Part shown: piece after piece, positions 4,923 through 27,548 of the stretch
How the letters are laid out: each line of letters opens with the position of its first letter
Position numbering within the stretch: position 1 is the stretch's first letter
Source: a virus
Virus genome (UHGV): UHGV-0107442
Strand: one strand, 5' to 3'
Length of the DNA: 34,578 bases
Notes under the pieces: generated by a model
What the model was told of the DNA's origin: nothing
The model's database searches: none
The model's input: only the letters and a program-made list of their open reading frames with translations
Made by a program: the position numbers and the translations under genes

Positions 4923-5776
4923 GCACCATCCTGAAATGGGCGGGAAATAAAACCGCCATAATGTCCGAACTGAAAAAGCATCTTCCTGCTGGCCCGCGAC
5001 TGGTTGAACCTTTCGCGGGTTCCTGTGCAGTGATGATGGAGACGGATTACCCCAGCTATCTTGTTGCGGATATTAATCCTGATTTAATCAACCTCTATAA
5101 AAAGGTTGCTGCTGATTGTGAGGCGTTTATATCTCGTGCCAGAGCTTTATTTGAGGAAGCAAACAGGGAGGTGGCTTATTACAACATAAGGCAGGAGTTT
5201 AATTACTCCACTGAAATTACTGATTTCATGAAAGCGGTATATTTTCTGTATCTCAATCGTCATGGTTACCGTGGGTTATGTCGCTATAACAAGAGCGGGT
5301 ATTTCAACATTCCCTACGGTAATTATAAAAATCCGTATTTCCCTGAAAAAGAAATTCGCGCATTTGCAGAGAAAGCCCAGCGGGCAACGTTTATCTGCGC
5401 CAGCTTTGATGAAACGCTGGCGATGTTGAAGGCGGGGGATGTGGTGTATTGCGATCCGCCGTATGACGGTACGTTTTCCGGCTATCACACTGATGGTTTC
5501 ACTGAAGATGACCAGTATCACCTGGCATCCGTTCTTGAACATCGGTCATCAGAAGGACATCCGGTCATTGTTTCTAACAGTGACACATCCCTGATCCGTT
5601 CGCTGTATCGCAATTTTACTCACCACTACATCAAGGCAAAACGCAGCATCGGTGTGGCAGCTGGTGATAGTAAATCTGCAACAGAAATCATTGCTGTTTC
5701 CGGGGCGCGCTGCTGGGTGGGATTTGATCCTTCGCGTGGCGTAGATAGTTCTGCTGTGTACGAGGTGCGTGTATGA
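4919..5776 (+). CDS. Dam-type DNA adenine methyltransferase (GATC-class N6-MTase), orphan
   Basis: ORF 4859..5776 begins with TTG; ATG at 4919 follows GGAGG at 8-nt spacing. Has the DPPY catalytic motif (VYCDPPY) and an N-terminal AdoMet region (ILKWAGNK...EPFAGSCAV). No adjacent restriction endonuclease gene. Confidence 0.85.
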
Positions 5777-8166
5777 GTCATGACGATATGAGCAACTCTA
5801 GCGGCTTTAACGAGGCCGCTGCATCATTTTCATGGAACGGCCCGAAAAAGGCCATTAACCCTTATCTGGACCCGGCGGAATTTGCGCCGGAGTCTGCACT
5901 TTCAAACCTGATCACTCTGTATGCTGCCGATAACGAGCAGGAACAACTGCGCCGCGAGGCACTGAGTGAGCAGGTCTGGGAGCGTTATTTCTTTAATGAA
6001 TCCCGTGATCCTGTCCAGCGCGAAATGGAGCAGGATAAGCTCATTAGCCGGGCAAAGCTGGCGCATGAGCAGCAGCGTTTTAATCCAGACATGGTCATTC
6101 TGGCTGACGTCAACGCCCAGCCTTCCCATATCAGCAAGCCGCTGATGCAACGTATTGAATACTTCAGCAGTCTGGGCAGGCCAAAGGCTTATTCCCGCTA
6201 TTTGCGTGAGACGATTAAGCCATGTCTGGAAAGACTGGAGCATGTACGCGACAGTCAGCTATCCACTTCTTTTCGCTTTATGGCAAGCCATGAAGGGCTG
6301 GACGGCCTGCTGATCCTGCCTGAAATGAGTCAGGATCAGGTAAAACGCCTGTCCACCCTGGTAGCAGCGCATATGAGCATGTGTCTTGAGGTCGCTTGTG
6401 GTGATTTGTATGCCACCGATGACGTTAAGCCAGAAGAAATCCGCAAGACATGGGAAAAGGTGGCGGCGGAAACCCTGCGACTGGATGTCATACCGCCTGC
6501 GTTTGAGCAACTCCGCAGGAAAAGAAACCGCCGTAAACCCGTGCCCTATGAACTTATTCCGGGTTCGCTGGCGCGTATGTTGTGCGCCGACTGGTGGTAT
6601 CGGAAATTATGGAAGATGCGTAGCGAATGGCGGGAAGAGCAGTTGCGTGCTGTTTGCCTGGTCAGCAAAAAAGCATCTCCCTATGTCAGCTATGAAGCCG
6701 TGATGCATAAACGTGAGCAGCGCCGTAAGTCGCTGGAGTTTTTCCGTTCTCATGAACTGGTGAACGAAGACGGCGACACGCTGGATATGGAAGACGTGGT
6801 AAACGCCAGCAGCAGCAACCCTGCGCATCGCCGCAATGAGATGATGGCCTGTGTTAAAGGTCTGGAGCTTATCGCGGAAATGCGCGGTGACTGCGCCGTT
6901 TTCTACACCATCACCTGTCCGTCACGTTTCCATTCCACGCTAAATAACGGCAGGCCAAACCCGACCTGGACCAACGCGACAGTAAGACAAAGCAGCGATT
7001 ATCTGGTCGGCATGTTTGCTGCATTTCGTAAGGCTATGCACAAAGCCGGGTTGCGCTGGTATGGCGTGCGGGTGGCTGAGCCGCATCATGACGGCACAGT
7101 TCACTGGCACCTGTTGTGTTTCATGCGCAAAAAAGACCGCCGCGCCATTACTGCATTGTTGCGTAAGTTTGCCATCCGTGAAGACCGCGAGGAGCTGGGC
7201 AATAACACGGGGCCACGCTTTAAGTCTGAGCTGATAAACCCGCGCAAAGGAACGCCGACAAGCTACATTGCGAAATATATCAGTAAGAATATTGACGGGC
7301 GTGGTCTGGCTGGCGAGATCAGTAAGGAAACGGGTAAATCCCTGCGTGATAACGCTGAATACGTTAATGCCTGGGCGTCTCTGCATCGTGTTCAGCAATT
7401 CCGCTTCTTTGGCATTCCGGGGCGTCAGGCTTACCGTGAACTGCGATTGCTGGCTGGTCAGGCGGCAAGGCAACAGGGGGACAAAAAAGCAGGTGCGCCG
7501 GTACTGGATAACCCGCGCCTTGATGCAATCCTGGCTGCTGCTGATGCTGGTTGTTTTGCCACTTACATCATGAAGCAGGGCGGCGTACTGGTTCCCCGCA
7601 AATATCACCTCATCAGAACTGCTTATGAAATTAACGAAGAGCCGACCGCCTATGGCGATCACGGCATTCGTATTTATGGCATCTGGTCACCCATTGCAGA
7701 GGGCAAGATCTGCACTCATGCAGTGAAGTGGAAAATGGTTCGTAAAGCCGTTGACGTTCAGGAGGCGGTAGCCGACCAGGGCGCTTGCGCCCCTTGGACT
7801 CGTGGCAATAACTGTCCCCCTGTTGAAAATATGAACAAATCAGGGGGGGATTTACCCGATATTAAAACCATGGATGAGAAGGAGCTGCAGGAATATCTCC
7901 ACAACATGGGCCAGAAGGAACGGCGGGAGCTGACAGCCAGGTTGAGACTGGTAAAACCGAAGCGAAAAAAAGCATACATACAGAGTATTTCGGAGCAGCA
8001 GCGCCTGCAGCTTGAGGCAGAACTGACTGCCAGAGGGTTTGAGGGTAGTGTATCTGAGATTGATTTGCTTCTGCGTGGCGGCAGCATTCCATCCGGTGCC
8101 GGTTTACGTATTTTTTACCGTAAACAGAGGCTGCAGGAAGATGACAAATGGCGTCGATGGTACTAA
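5773..8166 (+). CDS. A: Rolling-circle replication initiation protein (P2 gpA family)
   Basis: 797 aa; size and position match P2 A (761 aa). Contains the region [13 protein letters not shown] (HUH-like) and downstream YIAKYISK with candidate catalytic tyrosines. Start overlaps the Dam stop. Confidence 0.9.
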
Positions 8167-8235: not shown

Positions 8236-8278
8236 TTTACATTTTTTCTTTCCTACTATACTGTTTGTAAAAACAGTG
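8236..8278 (+). promoter_or_regulatory. SOS-regulated promoter: -35 TTTACA / -10 TATACT overlapping a LexA box
   Basis: TACTGTTTGTAAAAACAGTG (8259..8278) matches the LexA consensus TACTGT-N8-ACAGTA in the CTGT-N8-ACAG core. -35 at 8236..8241 and -10 at 8257..8262 (15-bp spacer, suboptimal). Lies 47 bp upstream of the ATG at 8325. Confidence 0.55.
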
Positions 8279-8324
8279 GGTATATGTACAGTATTTGTGT
8301 ATCCGTGTAATGATAGGAGGGAAG

Positions 8325-8513
8325 ATGCAGGACTATCTTTTGGAGTCATTGAAGCTCCAGCGTATTGATTTTTTTATCAAGCTTGTAGCGGCTAGTGAGT
8401 GCAGCGACGAAGAAAAGCGGCTGGCTATCCAGTGGGTGTCCGAACTGACAGATGAGTTGATGGCGAAAATTCGCAGCCATGAATACAGCCGATCAATGGA
8501 CGTTACCAGTTAA
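8325..8513 (+). CDS. Small SOS-box-controlled protein (62 aa); candidate Tum-like antirepressor module
   Basis: ATG 8325 follows AGGAGGG. Function inferred only from context: 186 places its LexA-controlled antirepressor tum in the equivalent position. Confidence 0.45.
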   Translation: MQDYLLESLKLQRIDFFIKLVAASECSDEEKRLAIQWVSELTDELMAKIRSHEYSRSMDVTS

Positions 8514-8525
8514 AGGGAAATCTGT

Positions 8526-8747
8526 ATGCGCATTGAAATAATGATCGATAAAGAGCAGAAGATTAGCCAGGCCACACTGGAAGCCCTTGAATCCGAGCTC
8601 TACCGTAATTTGCGCCCTCTGTATCCCAAAACAGCAATTCGTATCCGTAAGGGCAGCGCCAATGGTGTTGAACTGAGCGGGTTAAAACTGGATGAAGACA
8701 AAAAGCGAGTAATGGAAATAATGCAGCAGGTTACATTAAAACGTTGA
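8526..8747 (+). CDS. DinI-family protein
   Basis: 73 aa; the MRIEIMI start and overall pattern resemble E. coli DinI (MRIEVTI...). SD AGGGAA upstream; downstream of the LexA box. Confidence 0.8.
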   Translation: MRIEIMIDKEQKISQATLEALESELYRNLRPLYPKTAIRIRKGSANGVELSGLKLDEDKKRVMEIMQQVTLKR

Positions 8748-8908
8748 TCCCGATAGGATCCTATCAGAGGGAACAAGGTTGAACAACGAGTGAAGCGAGG
8801 CGTTAGGTATGGCGGTCATGATCTTCAATGGCCGCCAGCTTTGTACTGTTTGCTCAACCAGCGGGTGCAACATACTTTTCTAACTCGAATATAAGATAAG
8901 ATTTTTTA

Positions 8909-8937
8909 TTTACAACACTTGGCTTGTTCCTTAGTAT
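8909..8937 (+). promoter_or_regulatory. Candidate sigma70 promoter for the ATPase-HNH operon
   Basis: TTTACA (8909..8914), 17-bp spacer, TAGTAT (8932..8937), in AT-rich DNA about 45 bp upstream of the ATG at 8983. Confidence 0.4.
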
Positions 8938-8982
8938 CTAGCTAATCCTGAATGTGGGTTAGTGGAAATTACAAGGAAATAT

Positions 8983-10164
8983 ATGAAACTGACTGAGCTA
9001 ACTATAAACGGTATCGGGGGGATAAAGTCCCTGTACGTAAAATTTAGGCCTGACATGAATATTATATGTGGGCCTAACGGAGTTGGAAAATCCACACTCT
9101 TGCTTGCTGCCTCCTTTCCTTTTCTTCATGGATACACTAATAGAATAAAACGCAATGTCACTTCTGAAACAGGAAGTGTTAGTCTAATAATAGAAGATAA
9201 TTCTGTTAACTTTAATTCAGTATTAGATGTTAACGTTCATTTGCCTACAGAAACAATTCACAACTTTAATAATAACGGATTTGATAAGAGGAAACTAATA
9301 AAATTTGAAATATTACGTAACTTTGATTATAAACATCTTGAGGCGTTGAATGCAGATAAATCACTATCCGATGATGCTGTTTCGCAACAGATTAATTTAG
9401 GTGTCAATTTACATGATATCAAGGATTGGTTTGCTAAGAGGGATTTGTTTGAAAAAGTAGATAATGGTTACGGTCCTAATACGATAAAAAATATACATCT
9501 TGCAAGGGAGTGTATATCAATTTTAAACCCTCAGTTTTCTTACAATCGCGTCGATCCTAAATCTTACGATATTTTTGTAAATACCCCGACCGGGGTAATA
9601 TGGTATGAATATCTGTCCTCGGGATTCAAATCATGTATGAGTCTCCTTCTCGGTATTATTAAAGAGATCGAGCTTCGTTATCCGGAGAAAGATATTTACG
9701 CCCAAGAATTTGATGGAGTGATTCTTATCGATGAAATTGAGCTTCATTTGCATCCTGAGTGGCAGGCAAGAATCACTGAAGCCCTTACGACAACATTTCC
9801 ATCAGCACAATTTATTGTCACAACTCACAGCCCACATGTAGTACAGAATGCAAAACCACATCAGATCATTGCGTTAGTACCAGATAATGATGGCACAGTG
9901 AGAGTAAAAGAACTTCCTGAAAATGGCTTGGGTTATTCTGCCTGGACAGTTGAAGAGGTTTTGTTAGATGTAATGGGGATGGAAAGCACTCTCAGTAGAA
10001 AACTACAAGAACTACTTGATAATTTCGAACGTTTTGTTGATGAAGAAAATTTCGACAAGGCGAAAGAAATTTATGATTATTTGGATATGGCATTGCATCA
10101 AAACAGTATTCTTCGTAAATCTCTTAAAATAAGCCTGATGTCAATTCGAGAGAGAGAAGAGTAA
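8983..10164 (+). CDS. ABC/SMC-like P-loop ATPase, Septu PtuA-like
   Basis: ORF 8962..10164 begins with GTG; ATG at 8983 follows AGGAA. Walker A GPNGVGKST, Walker B VILIDEIELHLHP, then TTHSP. 393 aa; the stop abuts the start of the HNH gene. About 33% GC versus about 52% in the phage backbone. Confidence 0.8.
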   Translation: MKLTELTINGIGGIKSLYVKFRPDMNIICGPNGVGKSTLLLAASFPFLHGYTNRIKRNVTSETGSVSLIIEDNSVNFNSVLDVNVHLPTETIHNFNNNGFDKRKLIKFEILRNFDYKHLEALNADKSLSDDAVSQQINLGVNLHDIKDWFAKRDLFEKVDNGYGPNTIKNIHLARECISILNPQFSYNRVDPKSYDIFVNTPTGVIWYEYLSSGFKSCMSLLLGIIKEIELRYPEKDIYAQEFDGVILIDEIELHLHPEWQARITEALTTTFPSAQFIVTTHSPHVVQNAKPHQIIALVPDNDGTVRVKELPENGLGYSAWTVEEVLLDVMGMESTLSRKLQELLDNFERFVDEENFDKAKEIYDYLDMALHQNSILRKSLKISLMSIREREE

Positions 10165-10165
10165 A

Positions 10166-10912
10166 ATGATTAAGCTTGAACGGAACTTTATTCCTGATTT
10201 TTTTACTCGTGTTGATCTTCTATCTTTAACTCAGGAGTTTAAAGATAATGGAACATCTGTTTGGCATCATCCGGAAGTAAAATCGGCATGTCTAAAATTA
10301 AGTAATGGCAAATGTGCATTTTGTGAGGTCAAGCTTGAAGAGGCTAGCACCTATAATGAAATTGAGCATTTTAAGGATAAAAAAAATTTCCCTGATGATG
10401 TTATTAGATGGGAAAATCTCCTTCCTTCATGCCGTCACTGTAATGGTTCAAAACAACGCCATAATGTTGTACTCAATCCTATAATAAATCCATGCAACGA
10501 TTTACCGTCAGAACACCTTTATATGATAGGGTATCGTATTAAAGGTAAAACTGATTTAGGTAAAACAACAGTGGATGTTTTAAACTTTAATCACAGGGAG
10601 CACAAGTTTATACCGCGTTGTAAAGCAGGGGAACTTATAGATAGCAGTATTGATGACGCAATAGAAAAACTTAATTGGTTTAATGAGAATCCAAGTACTA
10701 GACGTAAAAACATTCTTATGAATCTAGTCGAGGCAATATTAGGTGAGTGTCAGAAAACATCTCCCTTTTCTGCAGTATCAGCAACAATGCTTCATCGTTC
10801 AGTCGAATATTCTTATCTGAAAGAAACCATGCAGATGCAAGGATTATGGTCAGATTATATGCAGGAACTTCATGATGAATCTTTGAGCCTGACGTTACCG
10901 TCAATTCGCTAG
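10166..10912 (+). CDS. HNH endonuclease, Septu PtuB-like
   Basis: 248 aa with CAFCE...EIEHFKDKKNFPDDVIRWENLLPSCRHCNGSK (CxxC...H...N...CxxC HNH core). ATG 10166 is 1 nt after the ATPase stop. Confidence 0.8.
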   Translation: MIKLERNFIPDFFTRVDLLSLTQEFKDNGTSVWHHPEVKSACLKLSNGKCAFCEVKLEEASTYNEIEHFKDKKNFPDDVIRWENLLPSCRHCNGSKQRHNVVLNPIINPCNDLPSEHLYMIGYRIKGKTDLGKTTVDVLNFNHREHKFIPRCKAGELIDSSIDDAIEKLNWFNENPSTRRKNILMNLVEAILGECQKTSPFSAVSATMLHRSVEYSYLKETMQMQGLWSDYMQELHDESLSLTLPSIR

Positions 10913-10938
10913 TTAATACAGTTTTGCCCATAAAAGCT

Positions 10939-10974
10939 AAACGTTCAGATATTCTTGGCTGAACGTTTGATTTT
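10939..10974 (+). terminator. Rho-independent terminator after the HNH gene
   Basis: Stem AAACGTTCAG (10939..10948), 10-nt loop, CTGAACGTTT (10959..10968), followed by GATTTTAT. Confidence 0.6.
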
Positions 10975-11257
10975 ATGAAGACGATAAGCAGATTGGGCCC
11001 GAGTGAGTATCTCGGGAAAATAAACCATTTACATACTATGTTTAACGTTCAAAGCACACCTCAAGCTTTCTTAGTTCTTCTGCTTCGATATATAAACGGT
11101 CATTTGGTTACGAACATTCACTTCTCCCCTAAGTGCATGGCTATGCTGCATGAGATCGCATGACCGTTTGAGGAGCGTTGTAACGCAGGCGTGCCAGTTG
11201 TGACGGACTTTTTCGTATGTTATGCACCTGCATGAAAACCATTGCACAAAGCGGGCA

Positions 11258-11284
11258 GGCGTGGCGGGGATACGAGCGCGCGCT
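11258..11284. other. cos-like sequence (P2/186-type cohesive-end site)
   Basis: GGCGTGGCGGGGA at 11258..11270 matches the first 13 nt of the 186 cohesive end (GGCGTGGCGGGGAAAGCAT as remembered) and 12 of 13 of P2. The following GCGCGCT also resembles sequence next to P2 cos. The last 6 nt of the 19-mer differ, so this is not certain. Confidence 0.45.
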
Positions 11285-11378
11285 AACTCATAAATCCTAG
11301 ATTATTAGTGGATTTATCTCATTGAAATGTGCACTATTCCCAGCATTGAGTTGTACCAGATGTCTTTATGGAGGGACT

Positions 11379-13145
11379 GTGGCTTTTGTAACTGATATTC
11401 GGCTTGAAGATAATGCTATTGCTGCACCTGCGACAGCACAGGTTATGGCTCAGAGGCTAGGATCTGTATTACGTAAGAGATATGAAGAATTCATCCATAA
11501 AAGAGAGTGTGCACCAGGCCAAGCAGACTATGATGTAAAAATGGCTAGCAGGGCTTTAGCTGCATTCACTATGTATCAGTTAGGATGTGTGGATGATAAG
11601 TATGCAGGGGAGTCTGTATGTGATAGTAGTGAAGATGGTGGTATAGATGGAATAGCAATCAACCATAACGAAAAAATCGTTGTTGTTGTTCAATCAAAAT
11701 TTCACCAATCGGGAAACGGCACTTGGACAAGAGCCGATTTTATGTGTTTTAAGGATGCTTGTGAGAAGCTACAAAGTGAAAGATACGAATTATTTGATTC
11801 CATATTGCAAAATAAAAGCGGGGAAATAAGTGCGGCTTTAAGTAGTTTTGAATACAAGTTCATCTTTGCGATGGCGCATACAGGTAAAAAAGGTGCTGCA
11901 GAGGAAATATTAAATGATATGCGGGAATGGCAATATCAATTAAACGCTGCAGCTTTTACACCTGAGGATGAGCCTAAAGAGAACTGGGGATTTCAGGTTC
12001 ATTTAATATCCTCTGAAGATATGATGCATTGGTTACAGAATGGCTCTCGAAATCAAATTGATCTTAACAGGGTTGAAATTGAGCGTTTTGGATTTTTGAA
12101 TGAACCATATCAAGCTTTTTACGGGGCTATTAGTGGTGATCAAGTTGCAGAATGGTGGGAAGAGCATGGTGCTCGATTATTTACAAAAAACATAAGGAAT
12201 ATGCTTGGTAAAACAGAAGTGAATGAGGAAATAAAAAAGACAGCTATAGATAATCCTGATATGTTTTGGTTTTATAATAATGGGATTACTGTACTGGTTA
12301 AGGAGGTTGTTCCTCATAGACGAAACGCAGCTCCTAATATAGAGAGAGGGATTTTTGATTTTCGTGATGTAAGTGTCATTAATGGTGCACAAACAGTCAG
12401 TAGTATTGGCGCATGTAAAGATGCGCTTGGTGAAAACATATATAGACTCAAAGTGCCAGCCAGATTCATTGTTATAGATGATGATACTGATAATTTAACT
12501 GCAAATGCGATTACAAAAGCTAACAATTTCCAAAATAGAGTATTGGGAAGAGATTTTGCGTCGCAGCAGGCAGATCAACATAGATTGGCAAGGGAGTTAG
12601 TGCTTGAAGGATATCAATATCAGTTACTAAGAACAGATGAAGATCATTCACAGACAAATACGAAAGTCATTGACTTGGATGAGGCGCTCAATGCACTCGC
12701 ATGTTTAAGTAAAAATAATACGGTTGTATCGACACTAAAATCAAATCGCGGTAGGTTTTTTGAAAATTTTGAAGGCTCTCTATATAAAACTATTTTCAAT
12801 CCAAGATTAAGTGGTTTAAAACTTATCAATACTGTTCTACATTTTAGAGTTATAGATAAGTTGATCGGTAAAACATTACTATCAGTAGATAAAACTACCC
12901 ATAGTCGCAAGCATTTAATTATTACGCATGGTAATAGATACTATGCGTCTGTGCTATTGAGCAACGTTTCTGGGATACATAATAGCTCAGAAATTCTTGT
13001 TCCAGATGAAAAAAATCTTTCAGAAGAATTAAGTGCATTAATTCAACGTGCTGAAGAGTACATTGAAGATAATTACCCGAATGCCTATCCGGCAAGATTT
13101 TTTGCAAATCCAACGAAAATACAAGAGTTATACGATAATGTTTAA
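11379..13145 (+). CDS. AIPR-family (abortive-infection phage-resistance) protein with an N-terminal PD-(D/E)xK-like nuclease motif
   Basis: ORF 11322..13145 begins with TTG. Start uncertain: GTG 11379 (GGAGGG 3 nt upstream) or ATG 11445. N-terminal DSSEDGGIDGIAI...VVVVQSKF resembles Mrr/restriction-endonuclease-like D...QxK. Central WFYNNGITVLV...VINGAQT matches the AIPR hallmark as remembered. AT-rich. Confidence 0.7.
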   Translation: MAFVTDIRLEDNAIAAPATAQVMAQRLGSVLRKRYEEFIHKRECAPGQADYDVKMASRALAAFTMYQLGCVDDKYAGESVCDSSEDGGIDGIAINHNEKIVVVVQSKFHQSGNGTWTRADFMCFKDACEKLQSERYELFDSILQNKSGEISAALSSFEYKFIFAMAHTGKKGAAEEILNDMREWQYQLNAAAFTPEDEPKENWGFQVHLISSEDMMHWLQNGSRNQIDLNRVEIERFGFLNEPYQAFYGAISGDQVAEWWEEHGARLFTKNIRNMLGKTEVNEEIKKTAIDNPDMFWFYNNGITVLVKEVVPHRRNAAPNIERGIFDFRDVSVINGAQTVSSIGACKDALGENIYRLKVPARFIVIDDDTDNLTANAITKANNFQNRVLGRDFASQQADQHRLARELVLEGYQYQLLRTDEDHSQTNTKVIDLDEALNALACLSKNNTVVSTLKSNRGRFFENFEGSLYKTIFNPRLSGLKLINTVLHFRVIDKLIGKTLLSVDKTTHSRKHLIITHGNRYYASVLLSNVSGIHNSSEILVPDEKNLSEELSALIQRAEEYIEDNYPNAYPARFFANPTKIQELYDNV

Positions 13146-13149
13146 ACTA

Positions 13150-13173
13150 AAGGGAGGTTGCCTCCCTTTTTTT
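13150..13173. terminator. Bidirectional terminator between the convergent AIPR and portal genes
   Basis: AAGGGAGG-TTG-CCTCCCTT hairpin (13150..13168) running into a T-run through 13173, with an A-rich stretch on the other side. It fills almost all of the 30-bp gap between the two stops. Confidence 0.65.
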
Positions 13174-13175
13174 AA

Positions 13176-14201
13176 TTAGAAATGGTATTCTTGGAATTCA
13201 ATAACACCTTCTTTTATGAAATTGTTTATTTCTTGTAATCTTTTTTGCAATGGCAATAATTCATTACGTACAAATACTTTACTCGCCTTCTCTACATCTC
13301 CAAAGCCCCCAACATTATTAGGCATTATCCCCATCATTTGCGGTGGCACACGATGCGCCGCCATCATGTCATCCCGGCTCACGTTCTTGATGTTTAGAAA
13401 CTCATCCTTCGCCGCCACTTCTGACAACGGGATAATCTGAAGTCCGTCCTTTTTCCCGTTAGGCGAGTACATAAACAGGTTGCGGAAGTTACCTGGTCCT
13501 TTGGCGCTTTTCATCGCATTGCGGAGGTTGTTCACATCCTCCTGGTTTTGCGCGGCATCGGTCATGTACATGATGAAGCCTGCATGACTGCCGTTAATGT
13601 AATACTTTCGGCGGAACAGCGTGGCGGACTCGTTGAGCAGGGCTGACGGAATGGCAGAAAGGTAACCTGGCAGGCCGTAGATCTCCTGGTTGATGTCCGG
13701 TTCCATCAGATGAAAGATGCTTCCTTTCGTGAACTGATATGGCTGCGTGGTCATACCGTATTGCACAAACCAGTAGGTATCCAGGTCTAACCCGCGTCGG
13801 GTGTATTTTGCCAGGGCAGGTTCAAGGGCGATAACTTCACCGAAGCGGTTAGTGCGTTTCTCCAGGTAGGCGTTACCAAAAACCAGATAGTCCTGCACAA
13901 AACGTGAAAAAGCCTGCTGGCTGAGCAGCGGGTGAGGGATATAGGTGCTGGACAGAATGTTGCACTTTACTGCAATCGGGGAGCTGTGATGTACGGCAGC
14001 GCGGAAGGTTCGCGCCAGCCCGTCGAAACTCACTGGTGGCTCATACCAGCGGTCCATCTGTACGCATTCCACATAGTCCAGTAATTCGCGGCGGTCCAGA
14101 ACAGGAACGGGATCACCGAAGCTGAATGCTTCGGCTGAAGTTTGGTTTTTATGCTGGATCTGGTTCGTCGCCGCAGCGCGGTTTTTCTTACTCTTTCCCA
14201 T
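13176..14201 (-). CDS. Q: Portal protein (P2 gpQ family)
   Basis: 341 aa from ATG 14201 (-); the track's 14204 start is TTG. Size and position match P2 Q; the start overlaps the P stop (ATGA). Confidence 0.9.
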   Translation of the reverse strand: MGKSKKNRAAATNQIQHKNQTSAEAFSFGDPVPVLDRRELLDYVECVQMDRWYEPPVSFDGLARTFRAAVHHSSPIAVKCNILSSTYIPHPLLSQQAFSRFVQDYLVFGNAYLEKRTNRFGEVIALEPALAKYTRRGLDLDTYWFVQYGMTTQPYQFTKGSIFHLMEPDINQEIYGLPGYLSAIPSALLNESATLFRRKYYINGSHAGFIMYMTDAAQNQEDVNNLRNAMKSAKGPGNFRNLFMYSPNGKKDGLQIIPLSEVAAKDEFLNIKNVSRDDMMAAHRVPPQMMGIMPNNVGGFGDVEKASKVFVRNELLPLQKRLQEINNFIKEGVIEFQEYHF

Positions 14202-24413: not shown

Positions 24414-25801
24414 GCACAAAATTTTATACCCTGCTGACGGATATTGGCGCGGCGAAACTTGCCAGCGCCGCCGCGCTCGGTGTGCCGCTAAAAATTACCC
24501 ATATGGCGGTGGGCGATGGCGGTGGAGTATTGCCAACGCCGGACGCAAAGCAGACGGCACTGGTAAATGAGAAACGCCGGGCTGCGCTGAATATGCTTTA
24601 TATCGACCCGCAGAACAGCAGCCAGATTATTGCCGAACAGGTGATCCCTGAAAACGAGGGCGGTTGGTGGATACGTGAAGTGGGCTTGTTTGATGAGTCC
24701 GGGGCATTGATTGCCGTGGGCAACTGCCCGGAAAGCTATAAGCCGCAACTGGCTGAAGGTAGCGGGCGCACTCAGACCGTGCGCATGGTGCTGATTACCA
24801 GCAGCACGGACAATATCACCCTGAAAATCGACCCTGCTGTAGTGCTGGCAACCCGCAAGTATGTGGATGACAAGGCACTGGAGCTGAAGGTGTACGCGGA
24901 TGATCAGATGGCAAAACATCTTGCCGCACCGGACCCGCATTCACAGTACGCGCCAAAAGCCAGCCCGACATTTACCGGAACCCCCAAAGCGCCAACGCCA
25001 GCGGCGGGGAATAATACCACGCAGGTTGCGACCACTGCGTTTGTACAGGCGGCACTGACGGCCCTTATTAATGGTGCGCCAGCCACGCTGGACACGCTGA
25101 AAGAAATAGCCGCAGCCATTAACAATGATCCGAATTTCAGTACCACCATTAACAATGCGCTGGCACTAAAAGCACCGTTGTCGAGTCCGGCACTCACCGG
25201 AACGCCAACAGCCCCCACGGCGGCGCAGTCGATCAACAATACACAGATTGCCACTACGGCTTTTGTGAAATCGGCGATTGCAGGAATGGTGGGTTCTGCA
25301 CCTGCTGCACTGGATACACTGAACGAACTGGCGGCGGCACTGGGGAATGATCCGAACTTTGCCACGACAATGCTTAATGCGCTGGCAGGTAAACAACCGC
25401 TGGACAATACGCTTACCAATTTGAGTGGAAAGGATGTAGCTGGTCTTCTCACATACCTTGGTTTGGGAGAAGCCAGATATGTCATTCAGCGAGGAGCTAA
25501 TGTCAATGGTGCATGGATACGCTGGTCAGATGGTGCAATAGAAGTATTTGGAACTGGTGGTTCCAATGATAATGGGCTGGCTAAAGTCGTTTATCCAATT
25601 GCACTACCTAAGCTTTCACGTTTTATCAGCATAGCGGAAAGAATAAGAACAGATTACGAGGCCACACCTAATAACGTTCACGTTTCAATGATCGTGGATG
25701 ACCAGGTCAGTAATACAGGTTTTTATGTCCGCTGCCAGATGTACGACGGAAGACCATCAACAAGTGCTTTTTCCTGGAGAGTTTATTGTGCGCCTGTTTA
25801 A
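24410..25801 (+). CDS. H: Tail fibre protein (P2 gpH-like constant N-terminal region plus variable C-terminus in the current orientation)
   Basis: 463 aa. Two tandem copies of a roughly 70-aa repeat (...TGTPKAPTPAAGNNTTQVATTAFVQAAL...DTLKEIAAAINNDPNF... and ...TGTPTAPTAAQSINNTQIATTAFVKSAI...DTLNELAAALGNDPNF...). The inversion crossover site lies inside the gene at 25458..25478 (encodes GLGEAR). Confidence 0.85.
   Translation: MSTKFYTLLTDIGAAKLASAAALGVPLKITHMAVGDGGGVLPTPDAKQTALVNEKRRAALNMLYIDPQNSSQIIAEQVIPENEGGWWIREVGLFDESGALIAVGNCPESYKPQLAEGSGRTQTVRMVLITSSTDNITLKIDPAVVLATRKYVDDKALELKVYADDQMAKHLAAPDPHSQYAPKASPTFTGTPKAPTPAAGNNTTQVATTAFVQAALTALINGAPATLDTLKEIAAAINNDPNFSTTINNALALKAPLSSPALTGTPTAPTAAQSINNTQIATTAFVKSAIAGMVGSAPAALDTLNELAAALGNDPNFATTMLNALAGKQPLDNTLTNLSGKDVAGLLTYLGLGEARYVIQRGANVNGAWIRWSDGAIEVFGTGGSNDNGLAKVVYPIALPKLSRFISIAERIRTDYEATPNNVHVSMIVDDQVSNTGFYVRCQMYDGRPSTSAFSWRVYCAPV
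25458..25478 (+). repeat. Left inversion crossover site, inside H
   Basis: Identical to the reverse complement of 26894..26914. Confidence 0.7.
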
Positions 25802-25985: not shown

Positions 25986-26220
25986 CCCCCGGCGCGGTGC
26001 TGGTATCTGCTTCCATCACCGCGTCGATATTACCAACATCATATTCAGTCATTTCCGGTTCCGGTGGTGCTATAAACTCTCCGTCAGAATAGAACCAACC
26101 GACGCCTGCATCTATATGATCAATATTTATAATTTCGCAGTTAGAGAATAAATCACCCTCTCCATCCCAGATAATAATATTTTTCACCACGCCATGTTCA
26201 ATCAGAGCAAAATTACTCAT
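25954..26220 (-). CDS. Small ORF of the alternative cassette; putative tail-fibre assembly/chaperone protein (88 aa)
   Basis: ATG at 26220 (-) overlaps the stop of the alternative fibre C-terminus (ATGA). Convergent with the ORF at 25788..25985, as expected for an invertible segment. Confidence 0.5.
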   Translation of the reverse strand: MSNFALIEHGVVKNIIIWDGEGDLFSNCEIINIDHIDAGVGWFYSDGEFIAPPEPEMTEYDVGNIDAVMEADTSTAPGVIWPVPPDMV

Positions 26221-26954
26221 CAGGCATACTCCTCAACAATAACTATTCCCGGGGCACCGTCACCTCCCGATTGAGCCTCACTTCCAGCAGGTGCGCAGGC
26301 TCCGCCTCCGCCAGAACCAAAGCCCTCAGCTTTACCACCACCACGTCCGCTGAATGATGAAGAACTTGCACCACCTATACCGCCTGAACCTAATGGTGTA
26401 TCCCCCCCGTTACCCCCTGCTACAGCTTTAACAGAGATAACCATTGCTCCTGGTGTTTTTGCACTACAGCGAAATGCTCTTAGTACAGTACCGGACGATG
26501 TCGGACTGGCACCCCGTGAAATACCCTGAATATATGATGTGTTTGCAGATGCTCCCCCCGCGCCACCGCCTGTACCACCAGGTGCAGTTATCATGGAACC
26601 GAAATAAGTTGTGCCACCTTCACTACCTGAATTTCTTCCGGCTCCCCCCCCTTTACCTGCAGCACCGATAATAACGTTGACTTCGAAATCATTATCAACC
26701 TCGAAAAATGCTTCAATAAATGCGCCGCTCAATCCAGCTCCGGCTGTTGCCTGCTGATTTTCTGTTGTTTCAGGAACCCCACCGCCGCCGCCACCGCCAC
26801 CAGAGGCAATGACCCTTATCTTTTTTGTCCCTGGTGTTGGGATATATTTTCCAGAGCTTTTAAAAATATTCGTGTTTAACAAACGACCAGAGAATCTGGC
26901 TTCTCCCAAACCAACGTTTAAGAAAATGCAGAGGTAACAGCTAACTGGCATCAT
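26220..26954 (-). CDS. Alternative, glycine-rich tail-fibre C-terminal cassette (silent in this orientation)
   Basis: The minus-strand ORF encodes VGLGEARF at the crossover site (26894..26914), in frame with the same GLGEAR encoded in H. Inversion would fuse about 230 aa of Gly-rich sequence (runs such as GGGGGGGG, GGTGGGAGG) to the H constant part. The first 14 codons before the crossover are probably not part of any real protein. Confidence 0.65.
   Translation of the reverse strand: MMPVSCYLCIFLNVGLGEARFSGRLLNTNIFKSSGKYIPTPGTKKIRVIASGGGGGGGGVPETTENQQATAGAGLSGAFIEAFFEVDNDFEVNVIIGAAGKGGGAGRNSGSEGGTTYFGSMITAPGGTGGGAGGASANTSYIQGISRGASPTSSGTVLRAFRCSAKTPGAMVISVKAVAGGNGGDTPLGSGGIGGASSSSFSGRGGGKAEGFGSGGGGACAPAGSEAQSGGDGAPGIVIVEEYA
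26901..26926. repeat. Right inversion crossover site (gix/hix/cix-like)
   Basis: TTCTCCCAAACC-AA-CGTTTAAGAAAA: two 12-bp half-sites around a 2-bp core, resembling remembered hix/gix sites (for example TTCTTGAAAACC-AA-GGTTTTTGATAA). Confidence 0.6.
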
Positions 26955-26981
26955 CTCCGGTTTTTATTCAGGGGGATGATC

Positions 26982-27548
26982 ATGCTTATTGGCTATGTAC
27001 GCGTGTCAACAAATGACCAGAACACCGATTTGCAACGTAATGCACTGAATTGCGCGGGATGTGAGCAGATTTTTGAGGACAAAATCAGTGGCACTAAGTC
27101 CGACAGACCGGGGCTGAAAAAACTACTCAGGACACTATCGGCAGGAGACACGCTGGTTGTCTGGAAGCTGGACAGGTTGGGGCGCAGTATGCGGCATCTT
27201 GTTACGCTGATAGAAGAGTTGCGCCAGCGTGGTGTGAATTTCGGAAGCCTGACTGACAGTATTGATACCAGTACCCCAATGGGCCGTTTCTTTTTTCATG
27301 TCATGGGTGCCCTGGCTGAAATGGAACGCGAACTGATAGTTGAACGTACCAGGGCAGGGCTGGCTGCAGCTCGTGCCAAAGGCAGAGTAGGTGGACGCCG
27401 TCCTAAGTTGACCACCGAACAGTGGGCACAGATTGGGCGTTTACTCGAGGCCGGAGAATCAAGACAGCGTATTGCACTGATTTTTGATGTAGGCGTTTCT
27501 ACCATTTATAGAAAATTTCCGGCAAATAAGATCAATGAATCCCCCTGA
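26982..27548 (+). CDS. Serine recombinase, DNA invertase (Hin/Gin/Cin/Pin family)
   Basis: MLIGYVRVSTNDQNTDLQ... with the catalytic-serine motif (VRVSTNDQ) and a C-terminal HTH. ATG 26982 follows AGGGGG; an alternative ATG at 26976 is in frame. Confidence 0.85.
   Translation: MLIGYVRVSTNDQNTDLQRNALNCAGCEQIFEDKISGTKSDRPGLKKLLRTLSAGDTLVVWKLDRLGRSMRHLVTLIEELRQRGVNFGSLTDSIDTSTPMGRFFFHVMGALAEMERELIVERTRAGLAAARAKGRVGGRRPKLTTEQWAQIGRLLEAGESRQRIALIFDVGVSTIYRKFPANKINESP

Follow-up and report, generated by a model that had tools for sequence, protein, structure and literature searches.

The window, i.e. the whole stretch of 34,578 nucleotides of the virus genome UHGV-0107442 analysed here, contains a two-gene operon, ptuAB, whose products are an ATPase and an HNH nuclease of the PtuA and PtuB families of the Septu defence system. 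The operon and the signals around it comprise the following features:

8909-8937, plus strand: promoter-like site TTTACA-17-TAGTAT, 5' of ptuA, matching the consensus in 9 of 12 positions
8983-10164, plus strand: ptuA, ABC-type ATPase of 393 amino acids (aa), with the open reading frame (ORF) open from 8962
10166-10912, plus strand: ptuB, HNH (beta-beta-alpha-Me) nuclease of 248 aa with a helical C-terminal domain
10938-10976, plus strand: terminator-like 11-bp hairpin and U-run after ptuB, detected by folding

An alternative in-frame GTG at 8962 would extend PtuA to 400 aa. The ATG at 8983 was chosen as the start because AAGGA is located at 8973-8977, five bases upstream of it, and because M1 and K2 are kept in homologues. 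The ptuA gene ends with TAA at 10162-10164, followed by a single base and the ATG of ptuB, and the two adjacent, co-oriented genes form one operon with the gene layout of type I Septu. The content of guanine and cytosine (GC) is 35.9% in 8909-10974, compared with 52.9% in the window outside the cargo region 8750-13175. An initial annotation of the window had described such a two-gene ATPase and HNH operon, with one-base spacing and in AT-rich DNA inside a prophage of higher GC content, and coordinates, protein lengths and composition all agree with it.

PtuA residues 1-390 align with positions 1-391 of the 392 in the PADLOC PtuA model PDLC00305 (E = 1.1e-151, 504 bits), which is its best match and extends over the full length of the protein. 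In Pfam, AAA_21 (1e-18) and AAA_15 (2.5e-18) are both above the cut-offs. A sequence search of PDB retrieved the E. coli Septu PtuA 8ee4 (E = 9e-23), and also PtuA chains of retrons Ec78 and Ec83. All expected ATPase motifs are intact, including Walker A GPNGVGKST (K36), the signature LSSGFKS, Walker B ILIDEIELHLHP (D250/E251) and the H-loop TTHSPH (H282). Invariant in 30 PtuA homologues are Walker A residues G30-K36, LSSGF at 211-215 including F215, D250/E251 and H282.

For PtuB, the best PADLOC match is the PtuB model PDLC00342 (E = 1.6e-95, 317 bits, positions 1-245 of 247), while the HNH match in Pfam stays below threshold. No match to PDB was obtained with phmmer using the single PtuB sequence, whereas with a profile of 30 sequences, E-values of 1.8e-16 for retron I-A PtuB and of 7e-8 for 8ee7_C, the Septu PtuB, were reached. 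The motifs C50xxC53, H68, N84 and C89xxC92-N93 are present, with the catalytic His and Asn intact, and K49, C50, E54, H68, N84, C92, N93 and K96 are invariant in the 30 homologues. The Walker and HNH motifs are thus those reported in the initial annotation. For both proteins, the next-best PADLOC matches are nearly all PtuA or PtuB models, with the retron I-A effector models far lower (4.5e-47 and 1e-12).

Confident AlphaFold2 models of single chains were obtained, with a predicted local distance difference test (pLDDT) score of 88.5 for PtuA and 94 for PtuB. In Foldseek searches of PDB, the 50 best matches of PtuA are all PtuA chains, the best being 8eea_D of the E. coli Septu complex (E = 5e-23), and the eight best matches of PtuB are all PtuB chains, the best being retron Ec78 PtuB. 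Nothing but PtuA and PtuB chains is significant, with template modelling (TM) scores of 0.5-0.7 over whole chains. Three helices are predicted at the C-terminus of PtuA (339-392) and a helical C-terminal domain in PtuB (144-240). The predicted chains align in their entirety to solved PtuA and PtuB. The Septu architecture recognized in the initial annotation is thus borne out by profile searches and by the comparison of predicted structures.

We have also addressed the question of the length of PtuA, which in the initial annotation appeared shorter than known PtuA proteins and was taken as a hint at a possibly divergent Septu or distinct system. PADLOC models of PtuA span 289-726 positions, and the best-fitting one, with 392 positions, is matched end to end, so the objection that the protein is too short for Septu does not hold. 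A homologue search with PtuA disclosed more than 2,700 relatives. Among the best 120, which come from Enterobacteriaceae, Pasteurellaceae, Francisella, Shewanella, Flavobacteria and metagenomes, nearly every one has a length of 386-396 aa. Judged from these sequences, 393 aa is the normal length in a large and widespread PtuA subfamily and no mark of a new system. A pair of about 390 and 248 aa with a gap of 0-2 nucleotides recurs in a MobA/TraD/shufflon region of Yersinia resembling an integrative and conjugative element, inside the hyp operon of Francisella, and in the Raoultella chromosome. Because the pair recurs in such unrelated contexts, ptuAB behaves as a self-sufficient mobile two-gene cassette. 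Other prophages likewise have the two genes closely paired. Among phages, tblastn with PtuA found distant homologues only, with identity of at most 35%, e.g. in Burkholderia phage KS9. In addition, the metagenomic protein P0022 (435 aa) aligns with PtuA over 77% of its length at 91% identity and has a phage-portal match in Pfam as well, which suggests that ptuA and the portal gene were joined in some P2-like element, by a deletion or by a fusion in gene calling.

Compared with copies of 87-96% nucleotide identity, the ratio of nonsynonymous to synonymous substitution rates (dN/dS) is 0.09-0.11 for ptuA and 0.07-0.13 for ptuB, indicating that both genes are under purifying selection.

The genomic surroundings of the operon are composed of the following features:

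5773-8166: gpA, replication gene, to the left of the hotspot
8238-8837: SOS-type operon similar to p95-tum of phage 186, consisting of a LexA box, a 62-aa ORF, a DinI/Tum-like gene and a hairpin
about 8325-8513: 62-aa ORF (RefSeq start), member of the SOS-type operon
8526-8747: DinI/Tum-like gene, member of the SOS-type operon
8810-8837, plus strand: terminator-like hairpin 3' of the DinI/Tum-like gene, with a 10-bp stem of which 6 are GC pairs, at the left edge of the cargo slot
11132-11290, plus strand: cos region with the cohesive end at 11258-11276, right border of the ptuAB slot, aligning to the ends of 186 and P2
11379-13145, plus strand: AIPR/AbiU-like gene, WP_021542068
13176-14204, minus strand: portal gene, to the right of the hotspot

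Among 5426 complete E. coli genomes, 4 carry the operon, at 100% identity. The copy in strain OkiPb01711, the only one of the four examined in detail, lies in a 186/P2-like prophage beside rcdA, in the order integrase, CI, CII, Fil, Dam, replication endonuclease, 62-aa ORF, DinI-like, PtuA, PtuB, AIPR, portal and terminase. The upstream flank (62-aa ORF and DinI-like gene) is present in 1181 of the 5426 genomes, with homology ending at about position 8731 of the window. As the operon is so much rarer than this flank, it is cargo. Its place between gpA and the portal gene, beside cos and variable among prophages, is that of the gpA-gpQ defence hotspot defined in P2-like phages (PMC9122126), confirming the cargo hotspot between replication and portal genes proposed in the initial annotation.

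Megablast of 8750-13250 against phage records showed that only 11132-11290 is conserved, in 41 P2-like records with 82-93% identity; neither the ptuAB operon nor the AIPR gene gave a match in the phage records, the 155-bp cos region alone being matched. The cos junction of the window reads AAAGCGGGCA/GGCGTGGCGGGGATACGAG, and the ends of phage 186 read ...AAAGTGGGCA (right) and GGCGTGGCGGGGAAAGCAT (left), so that both the junction AAAGCGGGCA/GGCG and GGCGTGGCGGGGATACGAG agree with them. Upstream of the cohesive end, the motif GCATG(A) is repeated, and a GC hairpin resembling a terminator is present. The junction motif occurs once per P2-like locus examined, and always 3' of ptuB.

Because cos lies between ptuB and the AIPR gene, the hotspot between gpA and portal consists of two slots, and these assort independently. 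The first one, from the Tum/DinI-like gene to cos, corresponds to the position of orf97 in phage 186 and holds ptuA and ptuB only. The second one, from cos to portal, is occupied by the AIPR gene, and in other phages by a SEFIR protein, an ATPase with RloB, or an Abi protein. The product of the AIPR gene, to which RefSeq gives the name AIPR family protein, has matches to PF10592 (7e-35) and PADLOC AbiU (6e-25) and a weak MzaE-like one; the gene has a GC content of 36.8% and is followed by a strong terminator at 13149-13169. Based on its sequence it is a candidate for a separate second defence gene. In the stretch of about 160 bp between the ptuB terminator and the cos region (10975-11131), only a 62-aa ORF (10975-11163) without any Pfam match was observed, and this stretch may be a remnant of earlier cargo.

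Scans for promoter and terminator consensus sequences are uninformative in this DNA, as their counts equal those of shuffled sequence. In the window, 19 promoter-like sites were found compared with 17.5 expected from shuffled sequence. The promoter-like signal of the initial annotation therefore exists at 8909-8937, but its 9/12 match is indistinguishable from chance, and the site can be considered only a putative promoter of ptuA. For the terminator that had also been proposed, folding of 10938-10969 gave a hairpin with an 11-bp stem and UUUUAU behind it, at a minimum free energy of -19.5 kcal/mol (z = -3.74); the consensus scan missed it, as the length of the loop exceeds what the scan allows.

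Upstream of the cargo slot, a perfect LexA box CTGTTTGTAAAAACAG at 8261-8276 overlaps the promoter-like TTTACA...TATACT 5' of the 62-aa ORF, in the same arrangement as the LexA box and promoter p95 of phage 186. The partial terminator t95a of that phage sits where the hairpin 8810-8837 sits in the window. As the LexA-boxed promoter and the t95a-like hairpin match the layout of phage 186, SOS-driven read-through into ptuAB from the promoter at about 8238-8276 and across the hairpin, which would make Septu SOS-responsive, is possible. Between the hairpin 8810-8837 and the putative ptuA promoter, a LexA-like site with one mismatch (8846-8861) was considered and attributed to chance (19 such sites in the window, 12.6 expected).

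Combining these results, we conclude with high confidence that ptuAB is an intact, stand-alone (type I) Septu system with a mechanism assigned by homology, and that it is accessory cargo of an E. coli prophage similar to P2 and 186, in the slot that extends from the SOS-controlled Tum/DinI-like operon to cos. It is established here that the two genes belong to the Septu families, keep their catalytic motifs, are under purifying selection, form an operon and are cargo, while complex formation, trigger, substrate and the protective phenotype are inferred by analogy.

The pair has been catalogued before. Table S5B of Rousset et al. 2022 (PMC9122126) contains, as system #105, two protein sequences with 100% identity to PtuA and PtuB. 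The system is given there as AAA_21/AAA_15/SMC_N with HNH_5, was counted 30 times in the P2 gpA-gpQ hotspot, and carries the label "Septu (Doron et al., 2018)". Table S5A of the same study lists WP_053887526 and WP_053887525 with WP_021542068 and WP_053887527 (PMC9122126). With a sequence-identical pair catalogued as Septu at the same hotspot in 2022, ptuAB has to be regarded as already known, although that study does not seem to have assayed this variant. In Table S5B, the same PtuA representative also stands under systems #46 and #64, of which #64 includes RVT_1. We treated this as an artefact of the choice of representatives and not as real alternative partners, since none of the complete E. 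coli genomes pairs ptuA with other partners.

Several points weigh against the assignment to a functional Septu system. The row of system #105 in Table S5B does not carry the "yes" flag, unlike a nearby row. In structural alignments, identity is about 20% to solved PtuA chains and 14-20% to solved PtuB chains, and because it is so low, stoichiometry, trigger and substrate may differ from those of known Septu. The published Septu substrates are in conflict, DNA nicking in one case and tRNA-Tyr of the host in the other. The ptuA promoter and expression in the lysogen are predicted only. Finally, matches to the NCBIfam PtuA and PtuB models, which were built for the retron Ec78 type, are below the equivalog cut-offs.

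One alternative concerns the mode of action. The clade of short PtuA proteins of about 390 aa could assemble, sense or cut in a different way, with another stoichiometry, trigger or substrate, as it shares only about 20% identity with solved or tested PtuA and has about 70 residues fewer between Walker A and the signature. Separately, SOS or prophage induction could drive expression, which would then protect the lytic cycle of the phage and not the lysogen. We consider this alternative unlikely.

Far less probable is that PtuA, PtuB and the downstream AIPR protein make up a single three-gene system. The three genes are co-oriented, AT-rich and adjacent, and the same trio is found in the 4 E. 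coli genomes and in one row of Table S5A of Rousset et al. However, ptuB and the AIPR gene are separated by about 410 bp that include cos and a terminator-like hairpin, and where a PtuAB pair of 96% identity occurs, the second slot is empty or holds a SEFIR/TIR protein or DUF4145. Table S5A also has WP_053887526/5 together with a PIN_12 protein in place of AIPR, and WP_021542068, the AIPR protein, together with a KAP NTPase; PtuAB also stands alone in non-phage contexts. An equally small probability is given to ptuAB lacking any role against phages, either as a silent remnant or as an addiction module that is chiefly selfish. In favour of this, the promoter call of the operon, which is known here from sequence, is no better than chance, and the operon is rare among complete E. 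coli genomes (4/5426). Against this stand intact ORFs, invariant catalytic residues, dN/dS of 0.07-0.13 relative to the copies of 87-96% identity, and translational coupling kept across genera.

Hardly any likelihood is left for ptuAB as the orphaned effector of a type I-A retron (Retron-Eco7/Ec78-like) whose reverse transcriptase (RT) and non-coding RNA (ncRNA) were lost or separated. Significant matches are indeed given by the ATPase and HNH models of retron I-A and by the NCBIfam models of retron Ec78 PtuA and PtuB, and the best structural matches of PtuB are retron Ec78 PtuB chains. The stand-alone models, however, outscore those of retron I-A, with 504 vs 159 bits for PtuA and 317 vs 46.5 bits for PtuB. 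An Rfam scan of the whole window gave no match, neither to a retron msr-msd nor to any other RNA, no RT is annotated in the identical prophage of E. coli OkiPb01711, and homologous cassettes elsewhere have no RT neighbour. PtuA has 393 aa instead of the approximately 550 aa, with N-terminal extension and flap, of the long retron type. At the position of Q361 of retron Ec78 PtuA, where stand-alone Septu has Leu, PtuA carries F215, and because this clade-invariant Phe replaces the retron Gln, the signature fits the stand-alone type. Another ABC ATPase and nuclease system merely resembling Septu (PARIS AriAB, Gabija/OLD-like or AbiL/RloB-like) is just as implausible, since generic AAA_21/AAA_15 with sub-threshold HNH in Pfam and a weak PtuA match to AriA (1e-7) are opposed by the 25 best PADLOC matches per protein, all PtuA/PtuB save retron I-A models, by an HNH partner in place of TOPRIM/DUF4435 or RloB, and by structure searches in which PtuA/PtuB alone are significant.

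Identification of ptuAB as a stand-alone Septu system has little significance beyond annotation. In the four E. coli genomes, the proteins that RefSeq calls generically "AAA family ATPase" or "HNH endonuclease family protein" are Septu, and the locus illustrates the published principle by which P2-like phages keep a reservoir of defence systems near cos. Modest additions are the division of the hotspot into two independently assorting slots, and a Septu subfamily that offers a cheap candidate for comparing triggers and substrates.

Some other features of the window were also observed. The segment 25329-27548 contains 33-nucleotide inverted repeats at 25446-25478 and 26894-26926, an opposed alternative fibre C-terminus on the minus strand at 26220-26954 (Gly_rich_2), and a serine invertase at 26976-27548 (Resolvase at 1e-52, and HTH_7); GC skew is negative at 26001-27000. 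This is probably an invertible tail-fibre segment, resembling host-range switching of the Gin/Cin type. GC content drops to 34.6% at 2001-2500, around the CI repressor/YdcA-family gene near the integrase end. A scan of the window for transfer RNA (tRNA) genes found none.

By analogy with studied Septu systems, a course of action can be proposed for ptuAB. PtuA, as an ABC-family ATPase, would oligomerize, and its C-terminal helices would hold the helical C-terminal domain of PtuB, so that PtuA, as an ATP-gated scaffold, would keep the HNH nuclease inactive as long as the cell is uninfected and rich in ATP. When a competing phage infects the cell, the PtuA-PtuB complex may be released or activated, upon which PtuB would cut nucleic acid, either DNA or tRNA. 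Such cleavage would halt phage multiplication, and growth of the infected cell would be arrested.

In systems studied so far, paired C-terminal extensions of PtuA clamp the helical C-terminal domain of PtuB in a helical bundle, and stand-alone PtuAB is a hexameric, inflammasome-like assembly (PMC12819146). Its DNA nicking declines with rising ATP, and a phage tail fibre is reported to sensitize it (PMC12819146). In another system, Septu EcB88, tRNA-Tyr is cleaved upon infection, Walker and HNH mutants lose defence, and infected cells grow slower (PMC13096335). Retron-type PtuA has about 550 aa and binds RT and multicopy single-stranded DNA (msDNA) through its N-terminal extension and helical flap (PMC12819146).

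Among known systems, #105 of Rousset et al. is the same entity as ptuAB, at the same hotspot and with no difference. The stand-alone E. coli Septu (8EE4/8EE7/8EEA/8SUX) is likewise a two-gene operon of an ABC ATPase and an HNH nuclease, with C-terminal helices in PtuA and a helical C-terminal domain in PtuB as in the window pair, and PtuB of the window also matches 8eea_G. At the signature position of the retron Gln, it has Leu where PtuA of the window has F215, both hydrophobic. Its PtuA is 465 aa long, compared with 393 aa in the window, at about 20% identity. Residues 2-55 and 203-373 align to 2-58 and 272-442 of the longer chain, and 56-202 correspond to 59-271, so that about 70 residues between the Walker A lobe and the signature are absent from the window protein. 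The 6:2 stoichiometry and inhibition by ATP are features of that system. Septu EcB88 is also a stand-alone E. coli PtuAB, needing Walker and HNH motifs and acting in an abortive-infection-like manner, and tRNA-Tyr cleavage is its feature. Its motifs are numbered K43/D316 and H75/N91, compared with K36/D250 and H68/N84 in the window, and because of this difference we regard it as a member of a different subfamily.

The effectors of Retron-Eco7 (Ec78) and Ec83 are a homologous ATPase and HNH nuclease, and they provide the best profile and fold matches of the window PtuB; they need, however, RT, ncRNA, msDNA and a PtuA of about 550 aa, none of which is present at the window locus. Finally, old/tin of P2 and orf97 of 186 occupy the same slot, from gene A/tum to cos, and exclude other phages, with proteins unrelated to PtuAB.

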